Part shown: positions 25,247 to 45,384 of the stretch, piece by piece | Position numbering within the stretch: position 1 is the first letter of the stretch | Layout: every line of letters starts with the position of its first letter | Assembly (NCBI GenBank): GCA_965221125.1 | Contig: CBDCRW010000003.1 | Coordinates: forward strand, 32,001 to 96,000 | Direction: 5' to 3' | DNA: 64,000 nt | Origin: Alphaproteobacteria bacterium | GTDB taxonomy: Bacteria > Pseudomonadota > Alphaproteobacteria > UBA828 | Position numbers and translations under genes: made by a program | The notes under the pieces: model-generated | What the model saw: the letters and a program-made list of their open reading frames with translations, nothing else | The model's database searches: none | Told to the model about the DNA's origin: nothing

Positions 25247-25511
25247 GCCCGCATTTCTCACCGTGGTCACGGTCTGCGCGGCGCTGTCCGGCTGACAGGC
25301 AAGGAGAGGCGCGCAGCGCGATGTGGGGCATCGGGCAAGCGCATCGACGTAGCATGTCGGCCGGAGAGCGCCGCCCTTCGGGTCGCGCCCAGGCGCCCGC
25401 CCGCGGCGTCGCGGGCCTCAACCGTATTCCCCGATACGCTTTTCGGCCCGCTTCTGGCGGATCGAACGCCTGGGCGCGACGCAGGCCGTGACTACGGTGA
25501 GAAATGCGGGC
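25247..25511. mobile_element. MITE-like palindromic element, copy 1
   Basis: 32-bp imperfect terminal inverted repeats (GCCCGCATTTCTCACCGTGGTCACGGTCTGCG / CGCAGGCCGTGACTACGGTGAGAAATGCGGGC); near-identical copy at 45119-45384; no transposase. Confidence 0.85.
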
Positions 25512-25844
25512 TGGACCTCCGTCGGCCCGCCACGCGCAGGGTTGAGCGAAAACGCTGCTTGAGATGTTCATGAGTGCCGGTCGAGGCGTATGACGCTGAT
25601 CGTACTCGCTGGTGCCGTGCATAACAGGATTCGCCCTCCCATGACAACGAGATGACTCTCATCGCCGAAAGAGCGCAACTGGACGGGGGATCGGGCTTCG
25701 GCGGCAGGGTGAAATCGCGCGCCCACCGTGCCGCCGCCGCCGCTCGACCCCGGCGGCGGAACTGCCTATCCTCTGCGCGCATCGCGGTCCCGAGACGTCG
25801 GCGAGGCCGCGTACCCGGCAGCAGAATGGCCAGGAGGTCGCACG

Positions 25845-27506
25845 ATGGAGATCGCTTCGGCGGAGCCGCCGGTCTGGAAGTACCAGCGGCAGTTCGATTA
25901 CGGAGAGGGTGTTTCGACGCTCGCGCAGCGCCCCGACCTGATGCACGACACGGCCTTGAAGCGGTTGTCGGACGAGCAGGTGCGGACCTTCATCGCAAAC
26001 GGCCACATCACGCTTCAGCCCGACCTGCCCGCCGCGTTCCACCGCGAGATGTTCGACCGCTTCGTCGGAATCATCGGAGAGGACAACGACCACAACCCCG
26101 GCAACAACCTTCTGCCCCTGGTGCCCGAGCTTCAGCTCGTCTTCGACGATCCCGTCATCAGTGGTGCGCTGACGAGCGTGCTCGGCGAGGACTACATGAT
26201 GCACCCGCACCGGGTGCTGCACGACAACCCGCCCGGCAGCGATCCCCAGCTCTGGCACCACGACAGCTACTGGGGCTACAAGCGCAAGGTGCACAACCAT
26301 CACCCGTGGTGGGTGATGATCATGTACTACCCCCAGGACATCTATGAAGAGATCGGCCCGACCGGGGTTATCCCCGGCAGCCAGTACATCGCGCAGAGGC
26401 TCGAGGACATCGAACAGCTCGGCAGCCACACGCGTGGCACGGGCGGCGCCTGCGTGATGATTCACTACGACATCTGGCACCGGAAGATGAAGAACTTCAC
26501 CAACCTCAAGCGCTTCATGGTGAAGTTCGAGTTCATGCGGATGCGGCGCCCGCAGGGCGTGACCTGGGACAGTGACGACGATGCATGGAGCAACCCGAGC
26601 GAGCTGCCGGGATACCGCATGGAGCCCGCGTGGCGTTCCACCTGGCACTGGCTGGGGGGAAGCCTGCTTCCCTCGCTGCCTCCCGATCCCGCCGTTGCGT
26701 TGGACGAAGCCCTCGCCGCGGCGCGCGACCGCTCAGGCGATGTGGACCATCGCGCGCGCGCCGAAGCGCTTGCCGATATCGCCCGCCTCGGCGCCGACGC
26801 CGCACCGGCGATCCCGGCGCTGGTCGAGCTTCTCGGCGACGACAACGAGGCGGTCGGTCTCAACGCGGCCTACGCTCTGGCCCACGTCGGCGAGGCGGGA
26901 ATCGCTCCCCTCGTCGCGGCCATGCGCGGCAACGACGGCGAGAACGTGGACGACGCGCGCTGCTTCATCGACCAGGGCGAGAAGAGCGAGCTCGAGATGG
27001 TGGCGCGAAACGCCGCCCACGGCCTGGTTGCGGCCGGACTGCCGGCCCTGCCCGCGCTCCTTGATTGCGCGCGCGAGGGCGGGCCGCGGGTGCGCAAGTA
27101 CGCCCTCTTCGCGCTGGGCGAACTCGATACCGACGACGACGCGGCCATCGACGCGCTCGTCGCGGGCTGCCGCGACGAGGATCCCGCGGTGCGCCTGAAC
27201 GCCGTTGAAGGGCTCGGCCTCAAGAAGGGAAGCCCGACCGCCGCCGAGGCCCTGGCCGCCGCCCTCTTCGACGGTGACGACGAGGTCCGCTTCAACGCCT
27301 CGCTCGCCCTCGCCCGCCTCGGCCCGGCCGCCGCTCCCGCGATCGGCGCCCTCGTCGAGGCGCTGCGCGACGGCAACCGCTACACCATGGGCTATGCGGT
27401 CGAGGCGCTGGAGCGCATCGGCACGCCCGAGGCGCACCAGGCCCTGATCCGCTTCCTCAAGATTGCGCGCTGGTGTCCGATCACCACCACCGGCAACCTG
27501 TTCTGA
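25845..27506 (+). CDS. Phytanoyl-CoA dioxygenase (PhyH)-like Fe/2OG domain fused to HEAT repeats
   Basis: AGGAGG RBS; WHHDS (HxD), GPTGVIPGSQ, IWHR; C-terminal repeats such as VRLNAVEGLG, VRFNASLALARLG. Confidence 0.85.
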   Translation: MEIASAEPPVWKYQRQFDYGEGVSTLAQRPDLMHDTALKRLSDEQVRTFIANGHITLQPDLPAAFHREMFDRFVGIIGEDNDHNPGNNLLPLVPELQLVFDDPVISGALTSVLGEDYMMHPHRVLHDNPPGSDPQLWHHDSYWGYKRKVHNHHPWWVMIMYYPQDIYEEIGPTGVIPGSQYIAQRLEDIEQLGSHTRGTGGACVMIHYDIWHRKMKNFTNLKRFMVKFEFMRMRRPQGVTWDSDDDAWSNPSELPGYRMEPAWRSTWHWLGGSLLPSLPPDPAVALDEALAAARDRSGDVDHRARAEALADIARLGADAAPAIPALVELLGDDNEAVGLNAAYALAHVGEAGIAPLVAAMRGNDGENVDDARCFIDQGEKSELEMVARNAAHGLVAAGLPALPALLDCAREGGPRVRKYALFALGELDTDDDAAIDALVAGCRDEDPAVRLNAVEGLGLKKGSPTAAEALAAALFDGDDEVRFNASLALARLGPAAAPAIGALVEALRDGNRYTMGYAVEALERIGTPEAHQALIRFLKIARWCPITTTGNLF

Positions 27507-27528
27507 CCCGCCCCCGTTAGCGGGCAAG

Positions 27529-27560
27529 GAAAAAAGGGAGGGGCGTTTGCCCCTCCCTTC
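27529..27560 (-). terminator. Rho-independent terminator of the ABC operon
   Basis: Minus strand GAAGGGAGGGGC-AAAC-GCCCCTCCCTTTTTT just after the SBP stop. Confidence 0.8.
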
Positions 27561-27576
27561 ATGTTGGCAACGGAAA

Positions 27577-29130
27577 CTAAACGTCGAAGTTGAGTCCGGC
27601 GCGCTTCGTCGCCTCCAGGAACTTGTCGTGCTGCGACTTCTGCGAGTCGTAGCCGAGCTTCTGCGTGATCTGCACCCACTCTTCCGCCGCCTCGTCGAGC
27701 GCGTCCTGCGCACCGATCTCGTCGGAAATGAAGCGCGAGATTGCGCGGCCGAGGGCATCGCCGTATTCGCCCGCACCTTCCCAGTAAATCTGCGGGAAGG
27801 CGTTCTCCACATTGGCCTGGCAGCCGTCGAGGTGACGCCGTGCCTGGTCGAATGTCTTGAAGATGCCGTCGTTGACCGGCCACAGCTCGTCGGTGCCGCG
27901 CTGCGGGTTGGGCTCGGTGTACATCTGCGCCGCTTCGTCGGTGAAGTGGGTCTTCCCATAGGGGTCGGAACCGCAGAACGGGTCGGCCACGATGTTCATC
28001 GAGTAGTCCGGGTGGGACATGCGGTAGATGAAGTACGCGGCGGCTTCCTTCACTTCTTCCGAGGCGTTGGCAGGCACGGCGAGTGTCCGGCTGTAGAGCG
28101 CGACCGGCGTGTGCTTCATGCTGCCGTCGGCCTGCTGGGTGCCGGGCACCAGCGCGGTCGCCTGATCCGACGCCCGCTCGAGGCCCTGACTGCGCACCGT
28201 GAACTCGGCCAGGTCGATCCACCAGACCGACATGACGTCCGCGCCCGATTCCCAGCGCGCGATCGTTTCGCCGATCGACATGGAGGTCTTCCCTGGCGGG
28301 CCGGTCTCCACGATCTCCTTGAACATCTCGAGCGATTCCGCGGCACGGCCCTGGTTGATCTGCGGGTTCATGTTGCGGTCGAAATAGGTGACGCCGTAGC
28401 TCCCCGCGACGTCGATCCAGAACCCCCATGAGAAGTTCGGCGGGTTCATGACGACCGACGTGCCGTAGATGTCCTGCGAGCTGTACTTGTCGGTGAAGAA
28501 GCGCGCCGTGTCGCGATACTCTTCCCACGTGGTGGGCACGGTCAGCTCGCGCTGGAAGCGCTTCGAGAACTCCTTCTGGTTGTCCGCATCGGCGAAATAG
28601 CTCGGCCGATAGTGCAGGTTGTGGATGTCGCCATCGACCATCAGACCATAGGTCTGGCCGCCCCACTGCGAATAGAATTCGCCGTAGCCCGGCATGATCC
28701 AGTCGAAGTACTCCGCGGATCCGCCGAAGTTATCGAGGTACTGGTCGAGCGGCTCGAGCAATCCGACTTCCGCGAAGAGGCCGAAGTAGAGGCTCGGCAT
28801 GCAGAACCAGTCGAAGCGCGGGTTGTTGGACAGGAGCTGCGGCACGATCTTCGCCGTGGTCTCACCCGCGTCGTAGAGCTCGCGGCTCTTCAGGCTGACG
28901 CCGGCTTCCGCCTGAAGCAGCGGCGACAGCCACATCGGCGCGTTCTGCCAGTTGTTGTCCCAGAGGCCCGCGACCTCGATGTCGTTGAAGCGCTTGTCGG
29001 CCTTGAGGCTGCCGGCGCCGAGGCCGGTTCCCATGCCGCCCAGCGCCAGCGCGCCGCCGGCCATGGCAGAGCCCTTGACGAAATCGCGGCGCGAGAGCCG
29101 CCTGTTAACGAGGTGTTTGAAAGCGCCCAT
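27577..29130 (-). CDS. ABC transporter solute-binding protein (CUT1-like) with Tat signal
   Basis: SRRDFVKG twin-arginine motif; DGD..LHYR and PTTWEEY family-1 SBP motifs. Confidence 0.88.
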   Translation of the reverse strand: MGAFKHLVNRRLSRRDFVKGSAMAGGALALGGMGTGLGAGSLKADKRFNDIEVAGLWDNNWQNAPMWLSPLLQAEAGVSLKSRELYDAGETTAKIVPQLLSNNPRFDWFCMPSLYFGLFAEVGLLEPLDQYLDNFGGSAEYFDWIMPGYGEFYSQWGGQTYGLMVDGDIHNLHYRPSYFADADNQKEFSKRFQRELTVPTTWEEYRDTARFFTDKYSSQDIYGTSVVMNPPNFSWGFWIDVAGSYGVTYFDRNMNPQINQGRAAESLEMFKEIVETGPPGKTSMSIGETIARWESGADVMSVWWIDLAEFTVRSQGLERASDQATALVPGTQQADGSMKHTPVALYSRTLAVPANASEEVKEAAAYFIYRMSHPDYSMNIVADPFCGSDPYGKTHFTDEAAQMYTEPNPQRGTDELWPVNDGIFKTFDQARRHLDGCQANVENAFPQIYWEGAGEYGDALGRAISRFISDEIGAQDALDEAAEEWVQITQKLGYDSQKSQHDKFLEATKRAGLNFDV

Positions 29131-29220
29131 GTTTCCCTCCTAGCTTTCCTGTCTCGGGGTTGGTGAATTTGCCGTGCGGAGCGAAGGCATCACTCGTTTC
29201 TCAGCCCAGCACGTCACGCG

Positions 29221-30327
29221 TCAAACAAGCAAGTCCTCCGTTTCGGCATCGAAAACCAGCACGTCGTCCGGGTGGTAGTAGAGTTCGACCTCTTCGTCCC
29301 GGCCGGCGCCATCGCTCGACGTGGTGACGGCCTGCAGCTGGGCGTCGCCACTGGTCAGCGTCAGGATCGAGCGCTCGCCGGAATACTCGTTGATGAGCAC
29401 CTTCGCGGTGATGCTGTTCTCCAGGCCATCCGCGAAGCGGGTCAGATTCTGCGGCCTGATTCCGACGATGTAGCCGTCGGCCCCGCGGCTGCGAATCTTC
29501 GTCATCCGTTCGGCCGACGGCTGAAACCGTGTGGCGCCGTCGTGGGTGACGAGCGTCACGTCGCCGCCCGCTTCCTCCGGCCGGACCTCGAAGAAGTTCG
29601 TCGGCGGCTCACCGATGAATCCGGCCACGAAGACGTTGTTCGGCGCATGGTACAGGTCGTCGCGCGTGCCGAACTGCTGCAGGCGGCCCTCGTGCATGAC
29701 CGCAACCCGGTCCGAGAGTGCGAGCGCCTCCATCTGGTCATGGGTGACGAACAGCATCGTGCGGCCCAACGACTGATGAATGCGGCGAAGCTCGATCATC
29801 ATCTGGAACTTCAGGTGGGCATCGAGATGGCTCATGACCTCGTCGAGGATGAACGCCGCCGGCTCGCGGATCAGCGCGCGGCCCAGCGATACCCGCTGCT
29901 GCTGGCCGCCCGAGAGCGCGCCGGGCTTCTGGTCGAGCACATCCTCGATCTGCAGGAGCCCGGCGATCCGCCGCACTTCCTGCCTCCTGTCCTCCTTGCT
30001 CACGCCCCGCACTTCCAGCGGGAATCCCAGGTTCTCCTCGATCGTGAAATTGGGATAGAGCGCGTAGGTCTCGAACGCCATGGCGACGTTGCGCTCCTGC
30101 GGCTCCATGTCGTTGACCACGGTGTCGTCGAAGCGGATTTCGCCCGACGTGACGGATTCGAGCCCGACGATCATCCTGAGCGTCGACGACTTGCCGCACC
30201 CCGACGGCCCCAGCAGCGAGACGAACTCGCCATCCGCGACGTTCAGCGAGAAGTCCTTGACCGCGTGCACGTTGCCCCGCCGGCTGCGGTAAATCTTGTC
30301 GATGCTGTCGAGCGTGACGCGGGCCAT
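29221..30327 (-). CDS. ABC transporter ATP-binding protein (MalK-like)
   Basis: GPSGCGKS, LSGGQQQR, ILDE, VTHDQ; ATG at 30327. Confidence 0.92.
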   Translation of the reverse strand: MARVTLDSIDKIYRSRRGNVHAVKDFSLNVADGEFVSLLGPSGCGKSSTLRMIVGLESVTSGEIRFDDTVVNDMEPQERNVAMAFETYALYPNFTIEENLGFPLEVRGVSKEDRRQEVRRIAGLLQIEDVLDQKPGALSGGQQQRVSLGRALIREPAAFILDEVMSHLDAHLKFQMMIELRRIHQSLGRTMLFVTHDQMEALALSDRVAVMHEGRLQQFGTRDDLYHAPNNVFVAGFIGEPPTNFFEVRPEEAGGDVTLVTHDGATRFQPSAERMTKIRSRGADGYIVGIRPQNLTRFADGLENSITAKVLINEYSGERSILTLTSGDAQLQAVTTSSDGAGRDEEVELYYHPDDVLVFDAETEDLLV

Positions 30328-30329
30328 GG

Positions 30330-31439
30330 CTAGAGCACCAGGTTCTTGCCGTCGTCGGGATCGAAGAAAAACGCCTGTGTCGTGTCGATGGCGAGGCGGA
30401 CGCGCTCGCCGTGCTCGTAGCGGTGTTCGGGCGACGACAGGGCCGTGATGGTGGCGCCGCCCGCCTCGGCGATCAGGATCGCGTGGGTGCCGAGCGGCTC
30501 GAACAGCGTGACGGTGCACTCGAAGACATGCTGATCGGCGCGGACGTCTTCTCCGTCCAGCACCACGGAGACATGCTGCGGGCGTATGCCGTAGGTGACC
30601 CGCCCCGTGCCCGCGCCGTTCAACCGCTGCACGTGGGGCCCTGCGACGGGCACGGCGAGCGAACTCTCGACGTGACGCGCGAGCAGGGCGCCGTTCTCCG
30701 AAGCCAGCTCGCAGCTGAGCACGTTGATCGACGGCTGGCCCATATGCTCGGCCACGAACAACGTCTCCGGTTTCTCGAACACCTCGTGGGCCCCGCCGAT
30801 CTGCACGAAACCGCCGGGGCCGGCGACGCCGATCCGATCCCCGAGAGAGAGCGCCTCCGCGTAATCGTGGGTGACGTAGATGGTCGCGACCTTGCGCAGC
30901 GCTTCGAGGGTGTGGAACTGCGCGCGCAGCTCGTGACGGATCTTGGCATCGAGGTGGCTGATCGGCTCGTCGAGCAGGAAGGCTTCCGGCTCCGCCACCA
31001 GCGTGCGCCCCAGCGCCGTGCGCTGCTTCTGCCCGCCCGATATCTCGGCCGGCCGGCGCCCGACCAGCTGGTCGATCTTGAGCAGGCGCGCCACGTCCAT
31101 CACGCGCTGCTGGACCTCGGCCCTCGGCAAGCGGCGTGCACGCAGGGGGCTCGCGATGTTCTCGAACACGCTGAGGTGGGGATAGAGCGCATAGGATTCG
31201 AAGGTCATCGCGACCCGGCGCCGGTAGGGCGGCAGCCGCGAGATGTCCTTGCCGCCCAGGATGATGCGCCCCTCGTTCGGCACCTCGAGGCCGGCGATCA
31301 GGCGAAGCAGCGTCGTCTTGCCGATGCCCGACGGCCCGACCACGACGAAGAACTCGCCCTCCTCGACGGTCAGGTCCATCCGGTCGATCACCGGAAAGTC
31401 CCAGCCCTTGCACAGTCCCTCGATTTCGAGCCGTGCCAT
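30330..31439 (-). CDS. ABC transporter ATP-binding protein (MalK-like)
   Basis: GPSGIGKT, ISGGQKQR, LLDEP, VTHD. Confidence 0.92.
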   Translation of the reverse strand: MARLEIEGLCKGWDFPVIDRMDLTVEEGEFFVVVGPSGIGKTTLLRLIAGLEVPNEGRIILGGKDISRLPPYRRRVAMTFESYALYPHLSVFENIASPLRARRLPRAEVQQRVMDVARLLKIDQLVGRRPAEISGGQKQRTALGRTLVAEPEAFLLDEPISHLDAKIRHELRAQFHTLEALRKVATIYVTHDYAEALSLGDRIGVAGPGGFVQIGGAHEVFEKPETLFVAEHMGQPSINVLSCELASENGALLARHVESSLAVPVAGPHVQRLNGAGTGRVTYGIRPQHVSVVLDGEDVRADQHVFECTVTLFEPLGTHAILIAEAGGATITALSSPEHRYEHGERVRLAIDTTQAFFFDPDDGKNLVL

Positions 31440-31443
31440 GCGC

Positions 31444-32283
31444 CTAGCCCTTCACGACGCCGAGCGAGAGACCGCGCACCATGTAGCGGCGCAGCACCAG
31501 GAAGAGAATGACCGGCGGAAGCACCGCGATCAGCGAGAACAGCGCGGCGAGATTCCAGAGTTTTTGCGCACCCTGGACGAACCCCGGAGTCTGGATCGTG
31601 TTCACGGCCACGTTGGAGCCGACCAGCATGTTGGCGAACAGATACTCGTTCCAGGCGAAAATCCAGCAGAGCAGCGCCACCGACATCATGCCGGGCACGA
31701 CCTGCGGCAGGGTGATCTTGAAGAAGGCTCTGACCGGCGAGTAGCCGTCGAGGTACGCGGCTTCTTCCAGCTCGCGCGGCGCGTCGCGGAAGAAGACCAT
31801 CATCAACCAGGTCGCGAGCGGCATGTTGAAGACCAGGTAGAGGATGATCAGGGAAATGTGGTTGTCGGTCGATCCGAACACCGTGTCGAACGCGCGGAAC
31901 ATGGGCAGCAGGATCGCGACGGGCGGAAACATGCGGTTGGACAGGATCCAGAACGCCATGTTCTCGCCGCCGGCCTGGCGCGGGAAGCGCGCCAGGGCGT
32001 AACCGGCGAGGGAGCCTAGGAAGACCGCAAGCGCCGTGTTCGCCGAGGCGATCAGCAGCGTATCCAGCAGGGCGGCAACGTTGGTCTCGTCCGAAAAGAT
32101 CAGATCGAGATTGCTCCACATGAATTCGTCCGGCCAGAAGGTCGGCTTGATACGGTTGACCTCCTCGATGCCCTTAAATCCGGTAATGAATTGGAAATAG
32201 TACGGGAACAGGGAAATGATCGCCCATACTCCCAGGAATACGAACATAAGGATGGCGACGAGCTTGTAGTGACGATCGCTCAT
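31444..32283 (-). CDS. Carbohydrate ABC transporter permease (MalG-like)
   Basis: ELEEAAYLDG EAA loop, FAWNEYLFA. Confidence 0.92.
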   Translation of the reverse strand: MSDRHYKLVAILMFVFLGVWAIISLFPYYFQFITGFKGIEEVNRIKPTFWPDEFMWSNLDLIFSDETNVAALLDTLLIASANTALAVFLGSLAGYALARFPRQAGGENMAFWILSNRMFPPVAILLPMFRAFDTVFGSTDNHISLIILYLVFNMPLATWLMMVFFRDAPRELEEAAYLDGYSPVRAFFKITLPQVVPGMMSVALLCWIFAWNEYLFANMLVGSNVAVNTIQTPGFVQGAQKLWNLAALFSLIAVLPPVILFLVLRRYMVRGLSLGVVKG

Positions 32284-32286
32284 CGG

Positions 32287-37407: not shown

Positions 37408-37623
37408 TCAGTGAACGCTGAGCGGCTGGAGCTGATGCTGGCGGGCGGCGGCGAACGCGATCTCGCGGTCCGGTGCCACGCCGAGAAGGCGGCCGTCCGG
37501 CGCGTGAATGCCGAAGACCATGGCGCCATCCACGAGAACTTCGCGGATGTAGGCTTCGTTGCCGGCGAGGAAGTGGACGTGTTCCCGCTGCTCGCCGGCA
37601 GTCGTCCGTTCGACGTCATTCAT
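37408..37623 (-). CDS. DUF1150 family protein
   Basis: AYIREV, IHAPDG, AFAAARQHQLQPLSVH; AAGGAGG RBS. Confidence 0.8.
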   Translation of the reverse strand: MNDVERTTAGEQREHVHFLAGNEAYIREVLVDGAMVFGIHAPDGRLLGVAPDREIAFAAARQHQLQPLSVH

Positions 37624-37793
37624 GACCTTCCTCCTTCACCCTCGGCACGGGGCCGCAGCCCCGCCAGCCGCGCCATTCACACAACCCGAGCATCCGTCAG
37701 GCCCCTGCCCCGCCTGCGCCCACGATCGGCGGTTCCGCCTCTGAGCGATGGCTGGCGGTGGCGGCCATGCCGCCGACCAAGCGCATGTCTTCC

Positions 37794-37821
37794 ATGTGGG
37801 AATGGCGGGGTCGTGAATCAA
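37794..37821 (-). promoter_or_regulatory. Putative RpoH (heat-shock) promoter upstream of DUF1150
   Basis: TTG-N18-CCCACAT on the minus strand, resembling alphaproteobacterial RpoH promoters. Confidence 0.45.
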
Positions 37822-37877
37822 ACCGTTTTGGTATCCAGATTGCTCCGCAATGCAGAGCTATCTGGATATGCTGTCCT

Positions 37878-38001
37878 CCGGTATCTGGACCGCATCATCG
37901 CCGAGCTGCCGGACTCCTCGTACGCGCTCATGGCTGAGCGGCAACTCGACGACCCGGAGACGCCTGCTCAACTCACCTGCCTCGGCTGCCACAAGTACTG
38001 A
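37878..38001 (+). pseudogene. 3' remnant of a protein with a C-terminal CxxCH motif
   Basis: RYLDRIIAELPDSSYALMAERQLDDPETPAQLTCLGCHKY*; coding-like codon usage but no credible start or signal peptide. Confidence 0.5.
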
Positions 38002-38189
38002 ACCGGCGGCGAATGGAACGCGCCCGCACATTCCTCGACGTCAATTCGGCAGGTATTCCGGACGTGGCTGTCCCCGCCCGGCGGATATGGCATGGTGGCG
38101 TGAGCGAACGATTCCGCCGCCTGCGCCCACGGGTACACACCCGCTGAAGGGGCGCCGGGCGGGCGGCGCAGGGGAGCAGGCCGCCCGCC

Positions 38190-39107
38190 ATGAGCACGCA
38201 ATCGACGCACGGGGCGGGCGGGCCCGCCATCGGGCGCACCTGGGAAGGCGTGCTCCTGATGATCTTCACCTGCGCCTGCTTCGCCGGCATGTCGGCGGCG
38301 ATCCGCCACATCTCGGCGGAAATCTCGGTGTTTCAGATCGCCTTCATCCGCAACGGCATCGGCACCCTGATCCTCGTGCCCTTCATGGTCAGGATCGGCT
38401 TCGGCTCGTTCAGCCCGCGCCGCTTCCGCCTCTTCGCGGTCCGCGCCGGCATCGGCGTCCTCGCCATGTGGGCCTGGTACTCGGCGCTGCAGATCACGCC
38501 GCTCGCGGAAGCCATCACGCTCAACTTCACGGTCTCGCTCTGGATGATCCCGGTCGCCATCCTGATGCTGGGCGAGCGGGTCGGCCCGCGCCGCTGGATC
38601 GCCACCGTGGTGGGCTTCGCCGGCGTGCTGATCGTGCTGCAGCCGGGCGCGGACACCGTTTCCGTCGGCGGCCTGCTCGCGATATCGGCGGCGCTGCTCT
38701 TCGCCATCTCGATGGCACTGGTCCGCCTGCTCGCACGCGCCGAATCGCCGCTCGCCATCGTCTTCTACATGAACCTGATCATGACGCCGCTCTCCCTCGG
38801 CCCCGCGCTCTGGTGGTGGCAGATGCCGACGATGGAGCAGCTCGGCTGGCTTCTCGGTATCGGCTGCGTCCTCACCATCGCCCACTTCTCCATGGCCCGC
38901 GCTCTCTCGATCATGGAGGCGACGGCCATCGTGCCGCTGGACTTCACCCGCCTCCCCTTCGCGGTGCTCATCGGCTGGTTCGCGTTCGGCGAGTTTCCCG
39001 GCGTCTGGACCTGGGTCGGCGCGGTCTTCATCGTGGCGAGCGCTGTCTACATCGCCCGCCGCGAAGCGCTGCTCGTGCGCCGCCGCCCCGCCGTGATCGA
39101 CCCGTAG
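38190..39107 (+). CDS. DMT/EamA family transporter
   Basis: Ten hydrophobic segments, FIRN, LGERVGPRRW, GFAGVLIVLQPG, FGEFP. Confidence 0.9.
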   Translation: MSTQSTHGAGGPAIGRTWEGVLLMIFTCACFAGMSAAIRHISAEISVFQIAFIRNGIGTLILVPFMVRIGFGSFSPRRFRLFAVRAGIGVLAMWAWYSALQITPLAEAITLNFTVSLWMIPVAILMLGERVGPRRWIATVVGFAGVLIVLQPGADTVSVGGLLAISAALLFAISMALVRLLARAESPLAIVFYMNLIMTPLSLGPALWWWQMPTMEQLGWLLGIGCVLTIAHFSMARALSIMEATAIVPLDFTRLPFAVLIGWFAFGEFPGVWTWVGAVFIVASAVYIARREALLVRRRPAVIDP

Positions 39108-39184
39108 TCGCCGGGCCGCCGAGCGACTTTTGCAGGCTCCTGCGGTTTGCTATGTAGGCGGCCGCATCACCTGGGGAGTGGGAC

Positions 39185-39949
39185 ATGAACATCAGCGGGC
39201 AAACGGCGATCGTGACCGGCGGCGCGTCGGGGCTGGGCGAGGCGACGGCGCGGGCGCTGGCTGCCGCCGGCGCCAAGGTCGGCATCCTCGACATGAACGA
39301 GGCGCTGGCGCAGAAGGTCGCGGCCGAGGTCGGCGGCGCGGCCGCAGTCTGCGATGTGGTCGACCCGGCCAGCCACGAGGCCGCCATGGCGGCGGTGCGC
39401 GACGCCCTCGGGCCTGCGCGCATCATGGTCGCCTGCGCCGGCATCGCGCCCGGCGCCAAGCTGGTCGGCCGCGACGGCAACGCGAGCCCGCTGGAAAAGC
39501 TCACCCGCGCGATCCACGTCAACCTGATCGGCACCATCAACTCGTGCCGGCTTGCCGCCGCCGACATGGCGGCGATGGAGCCGATGGAGGACAACGAGCG
39601 CGGCTGCATCGTCACCACCGCTTCCGTCGCGGCCTTCGAAGGCCAGATCGGGCAGCTCGACTACGCGGCGTCGAAGGGCGGCGTCGCGGCGATGACGATC
39701 CCGCTCGCGCGCGAGCTTGCCCGCGACGGCATCCGCGTGAACTGCATCGCGCCGGGGCTGATGGACACGCCGATGATGGCGGGCCTCTCCGAGCCCGTGA
39801 AGCAGTCGCTGCTGGAAACGACGGTCTACCCGAGGCGCCTCGGCAGCGCCGAGGAGTATGGCGCGCTCGCCGTGCACATCGCGGAGAACACCTTCATGAA
39901 CGGCTCGGTGATCCGCTTCGACGGCGCGCTCCGCATGGCGCCGAAGTAG
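39185..39949 (+). CDS. SDR oxidoreductase (3-hydroxyacyl-CoA dehydrogenase type II/HSD10-like)
   Basis: TGGASGLG, ASVAAFEGQIGQ..YAASKGG, DGALRM. Confidence 0.9.
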   Translation: MNISGQTAIVTGGASGLGEATARALAAAGAKVGILDMNEALAQKVAAEVGGAAAVCDVVDPASHEAAMAAVRDALGPARIMVACAGIAPGAKLVGRDGNASPLEKLTRAIHVNLIGTINSCRLAAADMAAMEPMEDNERGCIVTTASVAAFEGQIGQLDYAASKGGVAAMTIPLARELARDGIRVNCIAPGLMDTPMMAGLSEPVKQSLLETTVYPRRLGSAEEYGALAVHIAENTFMNGSVIRFDGALRMAPK

Positions 39950-39965
39950 CCGTACCGGCCTCCCC

Positions 39966-40457
39966 CTACTCGGGAGACCAAGGCGCGATCCGGGTCTCCC
40001 AGGCCGCGCTGTCGGCCGGGCTGAAGAGCTTCAGCGTGAGGTCGATGCGCGCGAACTTCCAGGCGCCGTCCTCCTTGCGCAACCGGGAGTCGTACCAGCC
40101 GCCGATCCAGGTGTCCCTCGTCGGCCCCCCACCCTCGGGCGTCACCTTGCCCAGCTCCCACAGGTAGTGGTTCGACGTGGCACTGCGCCCGTCCGCCGCC
40201 ACCTCGACGATGGGCTGGGTCATGTAGTGGATGGCCCAGGGCATGAAGGTGGTGCAGTTGGGGCGGATGTCGCGGACGATCCCCGCCCGCGTCTCCCAAT
40301 GGCCGATGCCTTCGCAGTGCCACACCGCATCCTCGGTGAAGAGCGGCGCGACGAGCGCGGGGTCGCCGTTGTGGTCCACGGCCTTGGCGTAGCGGGCGAT
40401 GAGCTGCTGGATCGCCTCGATATCCTCGAGACGCCGGAGCCGCGCTTCGATGCTCAC
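39966..40457 (-). CDS. SnoaL/NTF2-like protein (BaiE/LinA-like), paralog B
   Basis: GTG start after GGAGG; RLEDIEAIQQLIARY, FTEDAVW, HYMTQP, GGWYD, WKF. Confidence 0.85.
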   Translation of the reverse strand: MSIEARLRRLEDIEAIQQLIARYAKAVDHNGDPALVAPLFTEDAVWHCEGIGHWETRAGIVRDIRPNCTTFMPWAIHYMTQPIVEVAADGRSATSNHYLWELGKVTPEGGGPTRDTWIGGWYDSRLRKEDGAWKFARIDLTLKLFSPADSAAWETRIAPWSPE

Positions 40458-40485
40458 GGCCGCCTCCCTTCGTTGCGCCGGCGCG

Positions 40486-40974
40486 CTACCCCTTCCAGGG
40501 CGGGATCGGCGTCTCCCACGAGGTCGCATCGGCGGGGCTGAGCAGCTTCAGGATCAGCTCGATGTGGGTGAACTTCCAGTCGCCGCCTTCCTTGCGGAAG
40601 GTGGATTCGTACCAGCCGCCGATCCAGGTATCCTGGTCCGGGCTTCCATCTTCCTGCACCGCCTTGGCGAGCTCCCACAGGTAGTATTCGCCGGTAGCCG
40701 TCTGACCGTCGTCCGCGATCTCGATGATCGGCTGGGTGAAGTAGTGCAGCGCCCACGAGAGCTGCTTGGTGGAGACCTCGCGCAGGCCCGAGACGATGGC
40801 GTCGCGGCTCTCGTAACGCCCGATCCCCTCGCAGTTCCAGACCGCGTCCTCGGTGAAGCACGGCGCCATCTTCTCCGGGTCGGCGTTGTTGTCCGCCGCC
40901 GTCATGTAGCGGGCGATGAGCTGCTTGATGGCTTCGATATCCTCAAGGCGCTGAAGGCGTTGCTCCACGGACAT
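40486..40974 (-). CDS. SnoaL/NTF2-like protein (BaiE/LinA-like), paralog A
   Basis: RLEDIEAIKQLIARY, FTEDAVW, HYFTQP, GGWYE, WKF. Confidence 0.87.
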   Translation of the reverse strand: MSVEQRLQRLEDIEAIKQLIARYMTAADNNADPEKMAPCFTEDAVWNCEGIGRYESRDAIVSGLREVSTKQLSWALHYFTQPIIEIADDGQTATGEYYLWELAKAVQEDGSPDQDTWIGGWYESTFRKEGGDWKFTHIELILKLLSPADATSWETPIPPWKG

Positions 40975-41009
40975 GGTCTCTGTTCCCTATGGTTGTTCCA
41001 GGTGTTCGT

Positions 41010-42548
41010 TCAGTTTGCGACGCGTTTCGCCGGTGTCTCTTCCGGCTTGCAGCCCGTGGGGCAGCACCGCCCCGGCTGACGGTCGCGGCTTTCCGTGCCG
41101 CTTTCGTCCGCAAGCACGCCCCGGTCGAGCAGCTTCTCCACGAGCGCCACCTTGTCCTCCACCGGGTAGCTGCGGAAGATTTCGAGGCCCGTCGCCTGCG
41201 GCGAGCCGCCGCCGTGCAGGCTGATGACCGAGTACCAGCCGGCGGTGCCGGAGGCGGTCAGGTCCTCGATCAGGCGGGCGACCTCCATGCGCTCGCCATA
41301 GGGCAGGTCCTCCCGCCCCTTCAGCATCTCCGCGAGGGTGCCGGCGGTCGCCGGATTGTGGTCCTCGTCCGGCCCCGGCAGCGCGACCACCAAACCGCCC
41401 GAGACCTCGTGCGCGATGCGGTGCATGTCGTAGATCTGTGTCGACAGCAGCAGCTTGCCGATATTGGCGAAGACGCGGTCGGGCTCGACGCAGCCGGAGC
41501 CGTCCGCCACCGCGTAGACCGAACTCGCGACACCGCAGGCATAGAAGCCCTCGACGATCTTGATCAGCTCCACCATGCGGTCGCGCAGGTGCGACGTGCG
41601 CTCGACCTCCAGGCCGTTGGCCTCGGCCATCAGGACGCCGGCGCCGATCAGCAGGTCGCCGAAGCCCGCGCGCGCGCCGATGCAGGAATGCCGGTGGTGC
41701 GTCGCATAGGCCTGCGTGAGCGACTGCGAATATTCCCACTCGCCGGCGAGGAACACGCGCTCCCACGGCACGAACACGTCGTCGAAGATCACCACGCCGG
41801 TGGACTGGCCGTAGCGGGCGCTGAAGGTAGCCGCCTTCTCGCCCGGCCGGCCTGCGGGGCGGGCGACGACGGTGACGCCGTCGGCATCCACCGGCACCGC
41901 ACAGCAGAGCGCAAAGTCCTTGTCGTCTTCCGTCATGTTGCGGCAGGGCATGACCAGATACTCGTGGACGTAGGGCGCCGCCGTGACAATCGCCTTCGCG
42001 CCGCGAATCACGATGCCGTCGGGCCGGCGCCGCGCGATGTGCACGTAGGAATCGCGCACGGTCTGGGCATGGGGCCGGCGCGAGCGGTCGCCTTTGCCGT
42101 CGGTCATGGCGACGCCGAGGGTGAGGTCCTCGGCCTGCACCCGGTGGAGGTAGGCGAGGAAGCGCTCGTGCAGGGCGCTCCCGGTCTCCTGATCCATGCG
42201 CCACGCGGTCTGGTGGATGGCGTTGAGTCCGTCCTGAGTCAGGTAGCGCTGGGCGCAGCCGGTGTACTGGCAGACGAGCCGCACCGCCTCCAGCTTGTGG
42301 AGCTGGTCGGTGGTCGAGCGGTTGATGTGGAGGAAGCGGTGGACCTCGTCGCCGGTGCTCTCCTCCACCGCCGTCATCGTCTGGCGGTGCTGCTCGGCCT
42401 GCGCGAAATCGTAGACGAGCCCCAGCGCGGCAACGCCGGGCCCGAAGCGCGGCTCGTCGGCGACGGACGCGACCTCGTCGCCGTCGACATAGACGCGGGG
42501 CGAGAGCCGCCGCAGTGACTCCCGGTACTCCTCGCCGGACATCAACAT
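41010..42548 (-). CDS. 4-hydroxybutyryl-CoA dehydratase / 4-hydroxyphenylacetate 3-hydroxylase family flavoprotein (AbfD-like, divergent)
   Basis: EYRESLR, AMTDGKGDRS..P, GIVIRGAK, FDDVFVPWERVF, LHGGGSP. Confidence 0.85.
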   Translation of the reverse strand: MLMSGEEYRESLRRLSPRVYVDGDEVASVADEPRFGPGVAALGLVYDFAQAEQHRQTMTAVEESTGDEVHRFLHINRSTTDQLHKLEAVRLVCQYTGCAQRYLTQDGLNAIHQTAWRMDQETGSALHERFLAYLHRVQAEDLTLGVAMTDGKGDRSRRPHAQTVRDSYVHIARRRPDGIVIRGAKAIVTAAPYVHEYLVMPCRNMTEDDKDFALCCAVPVDADGVTVVARPAGRPGEKAATFSARYGQSTGVVIFDDVFVPWERVFLAGEWEYSQSLTQAYATHHRHSCIGARAGFGDLLIGAGVLMAEANGLEVERTSHLRDRMVELIKIVEGFYACGVASSVYAVADGSGCVEPDRVFANIGKLLLSTQIYDMHRIAHEVSGGLVVALPGPDEDHNPATAGTLAEMLKGREDLPYGERMEVARLIEDLTASGTAGWYSVISLHGGGSPQATGLEIFRSYPVEDKVALVEKLLDRGVLADESGTESRDRQPGRCCPTGCKPEETPAKRVAN

Positions 42549-42560
42549 CCTGTCCCCCGT

Positions 42561-43445
42561 TCAGCCGGCCTGCGCGTCCCGCTGGCGGATCGCCTCGGCA
42601 ATCCGCAGCACGCGCTCGGCCTTCTCGTAGATCGGGTAATCGATGAAGTAGCCGTCGACCTGGATGGAGGCCGAGCCCGCAGCCTCGGCTTCCCTGAAGG
42701 CGGCGACATGCTTCTCGGCCTGGACCACGGCATCGGCGCTCGGTGTGAACACGCGGTTGACCGGCTCCACCTGCTTGGGGTGGATGCAGAGCTTGCCCTG
42801 GAAGCCGAAGCTGAGCGCGGTGTGCGCCGAGCGCTCCAGGTTGTCTGCGTCCGCGAGATCGATGAAGACCGTGTCGATGGGGGGCTCCAGCCCGCCGACG
42901 CGGGAGGCGAGCACGATGGTCGCGCGCGCGTGCGCAAGCTCGGCTTCCGCCCCGGTCCAGACCATTCCCATGTCGCGCGTGTAGTCGCCCGCGCCGAAGG
43001 AGAGCCGGCGGACGCGCGTACCGGTAGCCGCGATCGCCTGGGCCGCAGCGACGCCCCGGCCGGTCTCGATGATCGGCACCAGGTCGATGGCGCCCCTCTC
43101 GAGCCCCCGCTCGCGCTCGAGCTGGCCGAGCAGCCAGTCCACCGTCTCCAGCTGGCCGGGCGCCTCGACCTTCGGCAGCATGACGCCGTCCACGCCTGCC
43201 GCCACGACGGCCTGGAGGTCGCCGTAGCAGTAGTCGGTGTCGAGCCCGTTCACGCGTACGTAGCCGAGGCAGGCGCGCGGCGCCTGCAGGGCATCCACGA
43301 CGACCGCCCGCGTCGCTTCCTTCTCCGCCGCGGCGACGGCGTCTTCGAGGTCGAGGATCACGGCGTCGGCGCCGGCGCCGAAGACCTTGGCGACCTTGCG
43401 CGGATGGTTACCCGGGGCAAACAGGTAGGTGCGGTGCAGCTTCAT
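42561..43445 (-). CDS. CitE-like CoA-ester lyase (HpcH/HpaI aldolase/citrate lyase family)
   Basis: LFAPGN, ILDLEDAV, YVRVN, LPKVE, IIET, GKLCIHPKQ. Confidence 0.9.
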   Translation of the reverse strand: MKLHRTYLFAPGNHPRKVAKVFGAGADAVILDLEDAVAAAEKEATRAVVVDALQAPRACLGYVRVNGLDTDYCYGDLQAVVAAGVDGVMLPKVEAPGQLETVDWLLGQLERERGLERGAIDLVPIIETGRGVAAAQAIAATGTRVRRLSFGAGDYTRDMGMVWTGAEAELAHARATIVLASRVGGLEPPIDTVFIDLADADNLERSAHTALSFGFQGKLCIHPKQVEPVNRVFTPSADAVVQAEKHVAAFREAEAAGSASIQVDGYFIDYPIYEKAERVLRIAEAIRQRDAQAG

Positions 43446-43744
43446 GGGAACTCGCTGAAGGCTCGGGCCAAACAACCACAGCGCACCGCCCCGATCAAGG
43501 CGGCCGGTGCCGGCGGCGGGAACTTTAGCGGGGGAAGCGGGTCTGCGGCGTTATTTGGGTCTTTGTTATGGAAAAGCCAAGGAAAGCCCGTATGCTTCCC
43601 GAAATATACGCTTTGTTCTGGCAAGGTGGACCATCTTCTGGTCTTGTGCTCGACTTGCGAACGACGCTTGTGCCAGCCTGAGCGATGACCCGAACGGATT
43701 GAGACGCCACGTCTCGGGCCATCGATGACGAACGGAGGACGGCC

Positions 43745-44245
43745 ATGATCCGGAGCTGGAAACGACGCCTGGTCGGCGGACTCGCGCTTGGCGTTGCCAT
43801 CATGCTGGGATCGTCCCTGGCGGCAACCTCCCTGCGGGCCGATTCGGAATGGTCGTGGGAAGGCGCGATCGTCGGCGGGGTCATCGGCGGATTGATCGGC
43901 TCGACGCACGACGGCAGGACCGATCGCCGGGCCGCGCTCCGCGTCACCACGGCTCTGGCTCCCTTCTACGACGGGCCGTTCATCGTCCATCATCACCACG
44001 GGGGTTGGCATCGCCACCCGTGGAAGCACCGGCGCGGGTGGCACGTCTGGCTGGGACACTGGGAGCCCTGGCACGTGCGCTTGGATCGGTATCACCATCG
44101 CCAGTGGCGCGGCCCGTGGGTCCAGCTACGGTCGGTGCCCCCGCATCCGCAAGCGCACCAGCATCGCCACGGCCACCAGGCGCACCAGCAGACCCGGCAG
44201 ACGAATCCGCAGGTGCACCGGCACGGTCATGCCCACAGGTGGTAG
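43745..44245 (+). CDS. Hypothetical exported His/Trp-rich protein with glycine zipper
   Basis: GGAGG RBS; signal-peptide-like N-terminus; GAIVGGVIGGLIG; His-rich C-terminal half. Confidence 0.65.
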   Translation: MIRSWKRRLVGGLALGVAIMLGSSLAATSLRADSEWSWEGAIVGGVIGGLIGSTHDGRTDRRAALRVTTALAPFYDGPFIVHHHHGGWHRHPWKHRRGWHVWLGHWEPWHVRLDRYHHRQWRGPWVQLRSVPPHPQAHQHRHGHQAHQQTRQTNPQVHRHGHAHRW

Positions 44246-44282
44246 CGGCCGCGCCGCCGCGCCCTGATCGAATCGGCGCCGC

Positions 44283-44924
44283 CTATTCCGGGTGAAAGGC
44301 GATCTCGCCGTACCAGGCGCGGGCGCTCTGCCCGCAGTTGTCCGAATCGGTCATGACGGCAACGCCTTCGAGCGCGTCGACCTCCATGCCGAAGAGGCGG
44401 CGGAAGTCGGCGCGAACGTTCCTCCTGTAGCTCTGCCACGTCCCGGCCTCTCCCTCGCCTGACTGGACGGCGACCATCATGACCTTGGAGGAGAACGGGT
44501 TGGGCCAGCTCTGGCCCACGTCCGCCTGGTTCGCCCACACGTAGTTGACCGCCCGCGGCATGTCGAACCATTCCTCGCCGGGCGCGACGACGTAGATCCG
44601 GGCCGCGAAGTCGTCGCCCTCCTTGATCCGCTCGTCGGCGACCGCGAGCGGCTTCTCGATGCGCCAGCTCCACTCGAGGATCGGCGTCTCCGTCAGGTCG
44701 ATCTCCCGCTCGAGGTAGAGGCTCGATGCCGTGGCGGCACTGTCCGCCTCGACGACGCGCCGCCCGTCGACCTCGACGACGCGGTATCGGGTCTCGCCCT
44801 CGAACTCCTCGATCTCCCAGCCGCCGCGGTCCCCCGACGACGGCCACTCCAGCACGAGCGGCGCGGCGTACGCCGGCAGCGCAATCATCGACAAGGCGAG
44901 AAAGGCGGGCGCGAAGGGGTGCAT
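44283..44924 (-). CDS. DUF3047 domain exported protein
   Basis: Signal peptide; PILEWSWRIE, DDFAARIYV, NYVW, VMTDSDN. Confidence 0.85.
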   Translation of the reverse strand: MHPFAPAFLALSMIALPAYAAPLVLEWPSSGDRGGWEIEEFEGETRYRVVEVDGRRVVEADSAATASSLYLEREIDLTETPILEWSWRIEKPLAVADERIKEGDDFAARIYVVAPGEEWFDMPRAVNYVWANQADVGQSWPNPFSSKVMMVAVQSGEGEAGTWQSYRRNVRADFRRLFGMEVDALEGVAVMTDSDNCGQSARAWYGEIAFHPE

Positions 44925-45010
44925 CGGGCGAGTCTGTCCCACCGCGGCACCGCGGGCAACGGCGCGGGACGGCCAACCCGCATTGCCGTTTTGCTCGGAA
45001 GGGCATTAAA

Positions 45011-45120
45011 GCGGTCCATTCCGGCATACGCCGGCACAAAGTGGGACAAAGTGGCACAAAGTGGCTCATGATGGCCCAAGCTGGCCCGTCCCGGCGGCGG
45101 CAGGCGCCCGCTGGAGCAGC
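45011..45120. repeat. 10-bp-phased degenerate tandem array (11 units)
   Basis: Every decamer from 45011 has GG at positions 3-4; core ACAAAGTGG occurs three times. Confidence 0.7.
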
Positions 45121-45384
45121 CCGCAATTCTCACCAGGGTCATGGTCTGCGCGGCGCTGTCCGGCCGACAGGCAAGGAGAGGCGCGCAGCGCGATGCAGGG
45201 ACATCGGGCAAGCGCATCGACGCAGCATGTCTGCCGGAGAGCGCCGCCCTTCGGGTCGCGCCCAGGCGCCCGCCCGCGGCGTCGCGGGCCTCAACCGTAT
45301 TCCCCGATACGCTTTTCGGCCCGCTCCTGGCGGATCGAACGCCTGGGCACGACGCAGGCCGTGACCCTGGTGAGAAATGCGGGC
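45119..45384. mobile_element. MITE-like palindromic element, copy 2
   Basis: Same orientation and sequence as 25247-25511 with scattered substitutions; TIRs GCCCGCAATTCTCACCAGGGTCATGGTCTGCG / CGCAGGCCGTGACCCTGGTGAGAAATGCGGGC. Confidence 0.85.

Follow-up and report, generated by a model that had tools for sequence, protein, structure and literature searches.

A multi-copy, TA-flanked palindromic repeat with a covarying two-arm fold, probably a family of non-autonomous transposable elements, in uncultured Alphaproteobacteria

The sequence analysed here, referred to as the window, is a stretch of 64,000 nucleotides from an Alphaproteobacteria bacterium of the lineage UBA828 (GenBank assembly GCA_965221125.1, contig CBDCRW010000003.1, positions 32,001 to 96,000 of the forward strand). 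It carries two intergenic copies of a palindromic repeat element of about 265 bp, one beside pckA and one beside a gene encoding an MFS transporter (Table 1). Both copies had been described in an initial annotation of the window, and sequence inspection and blastn place them at the coordinates listed in Table 1, with inverted termini of approximately 31 bp; the location of copy 1 at 45 bp upstream of pckA was likewise confirmed, taking the ATG at 25201 on the reverse strand as the start of the gene. The evidence presented below indicates that the element is probably a multi-copy family of non-autonomous transposable elements of the miniature inverted-repeat type (MITEs) present in many uncultured Alphaproteobacteria.

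Table 1. Coordinates of the element copies, their parts and the adjoining genes in the window, and of short forms and a distant relative at loci outside it (L numbers). Helix numbers refer to the family structure, and R1 to the covariance model of the right arm.
Feature	Position	Strand	Details
Element copy 1	25247-25511	+	265 nt; divergent spacer between pckA and the HEAT-PhyH gene; nhmmer E = 1.8e-82
Element copy 2	45119-45384	+	266 nt; between the 3' end of the MFS gene and the 5' end of the DUF3047 gene; nhmmer E = 5.1e-85
Copy 1 left terminus	25247-25277	+	terminal stem of ~31 nt (helix 1); outer 16 nt GCCCGCATTTCTCACC; trinucleotide GTG at 25263-25265, then conserved inner block
Copy 1 right terminus	25481-25511	+	trinucleotide TAC at 25493-25495; outer 16 nt at 25496-25511
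Copy 2 left terminus	45119-45149	+	trinucleotide AGG at 45135-45137
Copy 2 right terminus	45354-45384	+	trinucleotide CCT at 45366-45368; outer 16 nt at 45369-45384
Copy 1 left hairpin arm	25275-25377	+	helices 2-4; R1 56.7 bits on the opposite strand vs 15.8 on the same strand
Copy 1 right hairpin arm	25380-25483	+	helices 6-9; R1 124 bits
Copy 2 left hairpin arm	45147-45250	+	R1 59.8 bits on the opposite strand vs 12.8 on the same strand
Copy 2 right hairpin arm	45253-45356	+	R1 120.6 bits
Central mini-hairpin between the arms	25373-25381 (copy 1); 45247-45255 (copy 2)	+	CCCTTCGGG; helix 5
pckA	23594-25201	-	PEPCK_ATP, E = 3.7e-212; probable ATG start at 25201, separated from the left end of copy 1 by 45 bp
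Gene with PhyH and HEAT-repeat domains	25728-27506	+	216 bp to the right of copy 1
DUF3047 gene	44283-44942	-	start 176 bp to the left of copy 2
MFS transporter gene	45521-46972	-	stop 136 bp to the right of copy 2
40-bp minis	L012:1984-2023; L042:2001-2040; L065:1006-1045		two terminal tips
Terrarubrum relative	L076:1347-1615		plasmid NZ_CP091854.1; 269 nt; no annotation in the record

Identity between the two copies amounts to 94.4% in blastn and to 94.7% in the family alignment described below. Their ends are sharply defined, as the terminal 16-mer GGTGAGAAWTGCGGGC presents four exact matches in the window, one per element end, against 0.12 expected from shuffled sequence. The trinucleotide next to the outer 16 nt has changed on both arms between the copies, as had been claimed: GTG/TAC in copy 1 forms two Watson-Crick pairs and one G.T pair, and AGG/CCT in copy 2 forms only Watson-Crick pairs. 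The predicted fold of copy 1 is highly stable with both RNA parameters (-197.1 kcal/mol, z = -13.0) and DNA parameters (-117.5 kcal/mol, z = -12.5). Neither an nhmmer profile nor the covariance model of the right arm, run with filters off, detected a third copy or a remnant in the window, the best non-copy match reaching 19.3 bits (E = 0.13). Open reading frames (ORFs) inside the two copies yielded no Pfam match, no transposase is encoded in the window, where the other 44 predicted proteins correspond to ordinary chromosomal genes, and no sigma-70-like promoter or intrinsic-terminator pattern was identified in or beside either copy.

Species-representative genomes were scanned for one terminus of the element, TGACNNNGGTGAGAAWTGCGGGC, leaving the trinucleotide free. 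The scan identified at least 75 loci from at least 32 assemblies, as counted by accession prefixes, and all family counts given below rest on the 75 loci listed from it. According to record titles, the carriers are metagenome-assembled genomes (MAGs) of Alphaproteobacteria, Rhodospirillales, Kiloniellales and Defluviicoccus, together with one "Clostridiales" contig that is likely a chance match. Besides that contig, the listed loci comprise 45 full-length copies (from at least 20 assemblies beside the window), 8 elements cut by a contig end, one 5'-truncated copy, one half copy, 4 internal-deletion forms retaining both termini, 3 minis of 40 bp made up of the two terminal tips, one copy interrupted by an insertion sequence (IS) and 11 solo termini, which are truncated remnants running into host sequence and not IS ends. 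The window's own genome is not among the matches, since no locus shares the window flanks, and relatives with other termini necessarily escaped a scan for an exact terminus. The 45 full-length loci and the two window copies were combined into an alignment (A2) of 47 copies from 21 genomes, ranging in size from 249 to 293 bp. At least 13 full-length copies reside in OY763326.1 alone. For 28 of the 35 copies from multi-copy genomes the nearest relative lies in the same genome, and mean identity is 95.0% within genomes (maximum 99.6%) vs 88.0% between them. The earlier suggestion that the two window copies belong to an abundant family is hence borne out by at least 45 further full-length copies.

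Each terminus consists of a conserved outer block of 16 nt, the free spacer of 3 nt and a conserved inner block. Of the 47 full-length copies, 35 have a TA dinucleotide directly to their left, 36 have one to their right and 28 have both. One position further out on the left, 35 of 46 copies carry C and 9 carry T (Y in 44); on the right, the corresponding base is G in 34 of 47 copies and A in 10 (R in 44), so that the insertion site is YTAR, mostly CTAG. Read from the flanks of these filled sites, insertion would duplicate the TA. A 4-bp duplication of the whole YTAR was considered and rejected, because the base before the left TA disagrees with the last base of the element in all copies except that at L010. 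In 18 of the 47 copies a stop codon adjoins the element, formed by the flanking TA and the first base of the element (17 TAG and one TAA); G is the first base of both termini, which means that the stop codon is restored whichever way round the element inserts. These flanks hold 29 CTAG sites outside coding sequence, of which 10 are stop codons, and the stop-codon enrichment is thus explained by the target preference. It was also considered whether the terminus supplies downstream genes with an outward-facing start codon (GGTGAGAAATG), as a naive gene caller extended 8 ORFs in this way; the number was judged compatible with chance, the eligible copies not having been counted, and the proposal was discarded.

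Shortened forms of the element have also been copied. A one-armed form of 175 bp occurs at two loci with the same junction and with 168 of 175 positions identical, and in the 40-bp minis the outermost 24 nt of the left terminus are fused to the outermost 16 nt of the right one; both forms are flanked by TA. Two minis from one MAG are identical and occupy two loci, both in a CTCTA...TAGAGGC context. Since one-armed and mini forms were copied, the arms are not strictly needed for movement, and the full-length form dominates among the copies. The MITE reading put forward in the initial annotation therefore receives support from TA flanks, inverted termini, the lack of an ORF, within-genome copies of up to 99.6% identity and re-copied deletion forms. 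The same deletion forms speak against an alternative in which the element moves as a folded single strand, as the substrate of an HUH transposase (IS200/IS605 or REP/RAYT) or of an attC-type tyrosine recombinase, and inserts 3' of CTA, since they lack one or both arms and yet are found at more than one site. The filled site C-TA-[G...C]-TA-G is, by reasoning, what would be expected from [G...C-TA] inserted after CTA, and movement as a single strand would also sit well with a fold that is more conserved than the sequence, even between lineages with unrelated termini (see below), and with the lack of a DDE partner among the listed loci or plasmids. Long, near-perfect inverted termini and a symmetric target, however, are typical of DDE elements and not of IS200/IS605-type ends, and no HUH transposase or recombinase gene was seen next to the copies, where flanking genes were not scanned systematically. 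Movement as a folded single strand is thus regarded as very unlikely.

The common structure of alignment A2 comprises 100 base pairs, with 94.8% of cells paired, organized into the terminal stem, the left arm, the central mini-hairpin and the right arm in a cloverleaf-like fold with a four-way junction. Both sides have changed in 29 of the 100 pairs, against 13.9±1.8 in shuffled alignments (0 of 500 reach 29), and in 143 cells, against 36.4±4.2 (0 of 500 reach 143). Sliding the partners by 1 to 3 columns as a control yields 6 to 13 two-sided pairs and 9 to 16 two-sided cells. Two-sided change is present in every helix of at least five pairs, with examples such as columns 264:271 (G:C in 27 copies, U:A in 20), 60:130 (G:C in 32, A:U in 14) and 43:148, which displays four Watson-Crick forms. 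The terminal stem (helix 1; 27 counted pairs, columns 1-31 and 320-350) has 97.1% of its cells paired across the 47 copies. The trinucleotide is its most variable part, and its two arms are nonetheless perfectly complementary in 29 of the 47 copies, against 12.7±2.3 after shuffling (0 of 10,000 reach 29), with 8 complementary types represented; the mismatches mostly mix existing types (AGG/CAT four times, ACG/CCT three times). The terminal covariation that the initial annotation had read from two copies therefore extends both beyond those copies and beyond the termini. Of the internal stems it proposed, the family alignment substantiates the 14-bp stem GTCGCGCCCAGGCG/CGCCTGGGCGCGAC (helix 6), with columns 198:311 (C:G in 40 copies, G:C in 6) and 200:309 (A:U in 38, G:C in 5, C:G in one), as well as GCGGGCC/GGCCCGC and CGTAT/ATACG (helices 8 and 9). 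The local pairing of CTGTC with GACAG did not stand as proposed; that stretch does pair, over 15-20 bp, with a partner some 90 nt further downstream (helix 2). Two-sided change is real and found across the whole family, from which it follows that either a folded single strand matters or a mutational process that copies palindromes is at work. Such compensatory change also speaks against a coding role of the element.

The two arms are mirror images of one another. When the reverse complement of the left half is aligned to the right half, 94 of 127 positions match. A covariance model built from the right arm alone (R1; 104 positions, 35 pairs) recognizes left arms only in the opposite orientation, with 36-70 bits across the listed loci, and all 143 matches of R1 in the 75 listed loci fall inside known copies. 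Given that the left arm and half match the right ones reversed, the element is an inverted duplication of old date, its unit being a half-element with one terminus and one hairpin arm of about 100 nt. Pairing takes place within each arm and not between the two. A rod, in which the left half would pair with the right, was examined and dismissed, as it presents 10 two-sided pairs against 9.1±2.0 in shuffles (204 of 500 reach that number) and its variable columns break pairs; a kissing interaction between the arm loops was dismissed likewise, since the same columns give breaks and no compensation.

A distant relative extends the comparison beyond MAGs. In a collection of 72,556 plasmids, Sinorhizobium megaplasmids included, the only match to the element was a partial one of 68 nt in plasmid NZ_CP091854.1 of Terrarubrum flagellatum. 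The corresponding element (Table 1) is placed exactly between the TAA stop codon of the gene for component IIC of a glucitol/sorbitol phosphotransferase system (PTS) and the ribosome-binding region of the IIB gene of the same operon, and TAA is found on both of its sides, which fits a duplication of either TA or TAA. No further copy of this type was found in the plasmid collection. Its termini (GAGCCTGTTTGGGAATT...) are unrelated to those of the main family, and its predicted fold (-186.4 kcal/mol, z = -15.2) has the topology of copy 1. Model R1 matches its right arm with 74 bits (E = 1.1e-12) and its left arm, on the opposite strand, with 54.2 bits. Compared to the family consensus, the 35 pairs of the right arm include 21 that are unchanged and 14 changed on both sides, with no one-sided change and no broken pair; in the basal 14-bp stem, 10 of 14 pairs have been replaced on both sides. 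Identity to the consensus amounts to 26 of 34 unpaired positions vs 42 of 70 paired ones. To the extent that one sequence can serve as evidence, the Terrarubrum element shows a predicted fold that outlasts the termini. A reading suggested by this relative, which we regard as doubtful, is that selection acts on the fold, not on the termini: the element would be a mobile four-way-junction module, made up of a terminal stem, two hairpin arms that mirror each other and have conserved loops, and a central UUCG-type hairpin, which has been retained across alphaproteobacterial orders while its transposase-specific ends changed, and which would act as an orientation-independent cassette, be it as an RNA with an effect on neighbouring genes or as folded DNA that serves the element's own spread. 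If so, having one arm per orientation would present the same structured element on whichever strand is read, and the copies would not be mere transposon debris.

The pattern of stems replaced on both sides (14 of 35 right-arm pairs in Terrarubrum, none of them broken) around better conserved loops is the usual signature of a structured RNA and, together with the two-sided changes seen throughout the helices of the 47-copy alignment, could indicate that the element is a functional RNA, acting in cis in 3' untranslated or intercistronic regions or as a small RNA, that rides on a mobile element or was spread by one, with the RNA itself being of use to either host or element. A good number of copies must be transcribed together with their neighbours, given that 18 of 47 start at a stop codon and that the Terrarubrum copy lies inside a PTS operon. 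In addition, the central loop forms a C(UUCG)G motif in 25 of the 47 copies, and the bcr1 element of Bacillus, in the account of PMC3184786, is a transcribed repeat with compensatory changes. A single functional strand would be expected of such an RNA, and no sign of one, either as orientation bias or as strand-specific G.U tolerance, was found in the alignment. The element runs in the direction of the adjoining gene in 8 cases and opposite to it in 10. In the central loop, 25 copies carry TTC, 12 carry the precise inversion of it, GAA, and 6 carry TCC, and the orientation of the loop is unrelated to the way the neighbouring gene runs. Conserved T.G pairs (helix 1) and C.A pairs (helix 6, right arm) would wobble on opposite strands, so that the mismatches tolerated favour one strand in one helix and the other strand in another. 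Moreover, private mutations are not depleted in stems, Rfam offers no match and the window copies present no promoter or terminator-like pattern. RNA is hence not shown to be the level at which the fold acts, and a functional RNA is considered an unlikely explanation. The orientation neutrality is not decisive in this respect, since the inverted duplication could provide one "sense" arm on either strand.

A different explanation for the same matched changes is that they are a mutational by-product, generated by template switching or by gene conversion between arms or between copies, in which case the fold would persist without any function. Inverted loops and multi-base compensatory changes are described as footprints of template switching in PMC8794818, and the family displays both: the TTC loop coexists with its exact inversion GAA, the trinucleotide AGG/CCT occurs inverted as CCT/AGG at L015, and several trinucleotide types differ by 2-3 adjacent bases. 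The mismatched trinucleotides AGG/CAT and ACG/CCT have, furthermore, the appearance of chimeras. An instructive case in this regard is the one orthologous pair found, L049 (2001-2266) and L066 (1758-2023): two species-level genomes carry the element at the same insertion site, and their shared flanks of 3.8 kb are 86.7% identical. The 17 differences between these orthologous elements include two compensatory pairs and a terminus variant, CCCGCC, that sits on opposite arms, and another copy within the same genome resembles the L066 element more closely than its ortholog at L049 does, a pattern that fits gene conversion between copies. Mutational upkeep of the palindrome, however, does not readily account for mismatches that are themselves conserved, such as the T.G at columns 24:327 in 44 of 47 copies or the non-standard pairs, in their majority C.A, at 205:304, 206:303 and 209:299 in 33, 44 and 43 of 47. 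Neither does it account for shared alleles being about half as frequent per paired column, nor for a 14-bp stem that has been replaced in Terrarubrum (10 of 14 pairs on both sides) while the loops remained unchanged. Pairing between arms, which conversion from half to half would favour, shows no excess covariation. Overall, a purely mutational origin of the matched changes is viewed as improbable.

The reading preferred here remains that of a MITE family. A DDE transposase supplied in trans would bind the termini and duplicate the TA, with the IS630/Tc1-mariner group or, within the IS5 family, relatives of IS711 as candidates. The ISY100 transposase, in the account of PMC2170065, binds its termini through two helix-turn-helix motifs, and if the partner of the element did the same, a free trinucleotide would be expected as an uncontacted spacer between two protein-contacted blocks. 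The complementarity of that trinucleotide and of the inner stems would then reflect a constraint on the folded single strand, acting on lineages that spread and persist more than on resident copies. As to why such a constraint should exist, host tolerance is tentatively preferred among the reasons considered: because copies settle in transcribed spacers and at stop codons, whichever way they are oriented, a closed and symmetric fold on either strand may be what disturbs neighbouring genes least.

Several observations, concerning first the movement of the element and then the proposed constraint, weigh against this reading. No second terminus was found within 2 kb around a transposase gene at any of the 75 listed loci. 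In a blastn search of the plasmids with the termini only, those of the main family gave no match with E under 0.5, and those of the Terrarubrum type gave no relevant match. An autonomous element with these termini was accordingly not found in the listed loci or plasmids, which is an absence from this sample and not from the genomes. The transposases that were seen near copies were evaluated as possible partners and discarded as unrelated insertions, namely IS4-family elements beside copies and an IS1182-like element inside one. The apparent invariance of the termini is partly built in, since the scan required one exact terminus. No empty site was found by comparing the flanks of the fetched loci and the window, and the flanks of L024 and L051, which overlap between different genomes, span neither insertion site. 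Filled sites would have the same sequence if the element brought one TA with it and inserted 3' of CTA, with no duplication taking place. In the window itself the flanks are degenerate, copy 1 being bordered by tc and tg where TA and TA are expected, and copy 2 by ca on the left and TA on the right. In addition, unrelated termini combined with the same fold, and loops that are more conserved than stems, are not what a plain selfish MITE predicts.

Concerning the constraint, private substitutions number 85 in 200 paired columns and 32 in 66 unpaired columns, a similar frequency, and 61 of the 85 in paired columns leave a non-Watson-Crick pair. Alleles shared by at least two copies number 77 in paired vs 54 in unpaired columns, being about half as frequent per column in the former, and 278 of 399 shared-allele cells in paired columns are Watson-Crick. 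The comparison suggests that resident copies decay freely while spreading lineages keep the fold, and the private/shared contrast behind it is weak (Fisher p = 0.024 on 47 rows), with p = 0.19 when the five most divergent rows (L016, L018, L037, L052 and L071) are left out. The orthologous pair L049/L066 complicates the picture further: the element is conserved at 249 of 266 positions (93.6%) vs 88.9% and 84.1% in the two flanks, which points in the opposite direction to free decay of resident copies, or to gene conversion. Host tolerance, for its part, is a reason that we only infer and hold loosely.

Other mobile sequences were observed at copies of the element. At L004 (55-2023) a copy is split by an insertion of about 1.7 kb encoding a 440-aa transposase with DUF772 and DDE_Tnp_1_6 domains (IS1182/IS5-like). 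Four copies in OY763326.1 carry an IS4-family IS at the junction between element and flank (L031:~532-1994, L035:~532-1994, L052:~2295-3757 and L067:~2271-3733); the IS copies, of about 1.46 kb, are approximately 99.5% identical and encode a 406-aa transposase with Nterm_IS4 and DDE_Tnp_1 domains. These insertions are accompanied by a duplication of about 10 bp that contains CTAG and the first CCC of the element, as in GCGCTAGCCC, and the IS appears to target the end of the element, in the manner of IS711 at Bru-RS repeats. In OY763937.1, a non-coding repeat of about 670 bp is present at L065 (1046-2023) and L068 (2001-2629), with 86% identity; it begins with 38 nt of the right terminus of the element, and its remainder is unrelated and contains repeated GCG(T)GAAATTGG(G/C)TTCGTTTTG motifs. 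No convincing gene was recognized in it by eye, a Pfam scan not having been run, and a second terminus was not seen in L068. This repeat may be another non-autonomous element that uses the same end. A solo terminus of 43 nt at L024 (2001-2043) lies tens of bases from a putative tRNA gene, identified by eye.

Three further features of the window lie near the copies or between them. Positions 45035-45070, between copy 2 and the DUF3047 gene start at 44942, hold three tandem 10-nt units (CACAAAGTGG followed by G or C), which could represent a repeated operator-like site upstream of that gene. The gene at 25728-27506 combines a PhyH-like dioxygenase region with several HEAT/armadillo-type repeats, a domain pairing that is unusual for a bacterial protein. 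At 39969-40974, two adjacent genes encoding SnoaL_4 domains form a pair of tandem paralogs with about 72% DNA identity.

The family bears on several questions beyond the window. Structured MITEs are known, and few have been examined for base-pair covariation at such a scale. If the fold is functional, the element would constitute a portable, orientation-independent structured module; if it is not, it would offer a clean natural case of a palindrome maintained by template switching or gene conversion. The existence of a relative with the same fold and different ends in the cultured Terrarubrum flagellatum makes selection on the fold of a mobile element testable. With a terminal G that restores stop codons, the element can sit directly against genes, making for a benign insertion. 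For annotation, knowledge of the family, which abounds in uncultured and little-studied Alphaproteobacteria, should prevent errors, given that naive ORF calling ran ORFs into copies. In the window, its presence puts a stable hairpin of about 265 bp in the upstream region of pckA, and a second one between two co-directional genes.

The element was compared with known repeat families by sequence and by published description. Rfam 15 yields no match to the element at gathering score, the sole match in the window being a tRNA located elsewhere; at E ≤ 10, copy 1 matches two microRNA families, scoring 21 and 15 bits where the gathering thresholds are 128 and 196, which is at chance level (E ≥ 0.25). 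E. coli genomes carry ERIC, and the likeness to the ERIC core noted in the initial annotation was not sustained, since blastn (word size 11) with copy 1 produced no match at E ≤ 0.01 in 5,426 complete E. coli genomes. In a full-text literature search, no paper was found to print either terminal 16-mer; searches on MITEs of sponge-symbiont Alphaproteobacteria gave no matching report, and those on MITEs, IS630 and compensatory changes gave reviews only. No GANTC is present in the 266-nt consensus. That the element belongs to a described family, be it ERIC, CIR/Bru-RS or RIME, is thus extremely unlikely. Its TA-flanked, foldable design in an alphaproteobacterial host, and the two arms and linker attributed to CIR in PMC2229807, do recall such families, but the E. 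coli, GANTC and Rfam results just given and the single partial plasmid match all argue otherwise, the comparison with CIR, Bru-RS and RIME being one of descriptions only.

The closest parallels in design are found among small TA-flanked repeats. The Correia/NEMIS and ERIC families are flanked by TA. They share with the element the inverted termini and the folding of the whole repeat through pairing of its 5' and 3' ends, but the element is larger and forms a four-way junction instead of a single hairpin, and the evidence for sites of integration host factor and for promoters is absent at the window copies; RNA-level roles of both families are covered in PMC2229807. RUP, as presented in PMC2229807, is likewise small, non-coding, multi-copy and bounded by inverted termini, inserts at TA, where it is thought to be moved in trans by IS630-Spn1, and differs in its size of 107 bp, in termini that match those of a known IS and in lacking the two-arm covarying fold of the element, for which a partner IS was not found. 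The bcr1 repeat of the Bacillus cereus group, in the description of PMC3184786, resembles the element in looking mobile and in having a cruciform-like fold that compensatory changes preserve; it is about 155 bp long, is flanked by 5-bp direct repeats, belongs to Firmicutes and is transcribed, whereas the element has TA flanks, a two-arm inverted duplication and alphaproteobacterial hosts. The CIR repeats of Caulobacter and Brucella, going by the description in PMC2229807, are alphaproteobacterial intergenic repeats with two long inverted-repeat arms and a linker, as in the element. CIR, however, is defined around GANTC in the terminal loop and is described there as having no pairing of its 5' and 3' ends, whereas the element has no GANTC and a terminal stem of 31 bp.

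Among mobile elements, IS711 duplicates TA within YTAR, and the palindromic Bru-RS1/2 repeats of Brucella are hot spots for it, according to the passages on these sequences in PMC2266754; the attraction of IS711 by Bru-RS has its counterpart in the IS4-family insertions at the end of the element in four copies. IS711 and the IS630/Tc1-mariner elements, as portrayed in PMC2266754 and PMC2229807, have in common with the element the TA target and the 2-bp duplication deduced for it, the YTAR context being that of IS711, but they are autonomous and encode their transposase, and no such gene with the element's termini was found; nor was an IS630-type transposase, or an IS with matching termini (IS630 or IS711-like), present in the listed loci or the window. 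With no known family matched in Rfam, plasmids, E. coli or the literature, and with CIR set apart by its description, the suggestion in the initial annotation of a possibly undescribed family is upheld: the element apparently represents an undescribed, multi-copy MITE family that targets TA.

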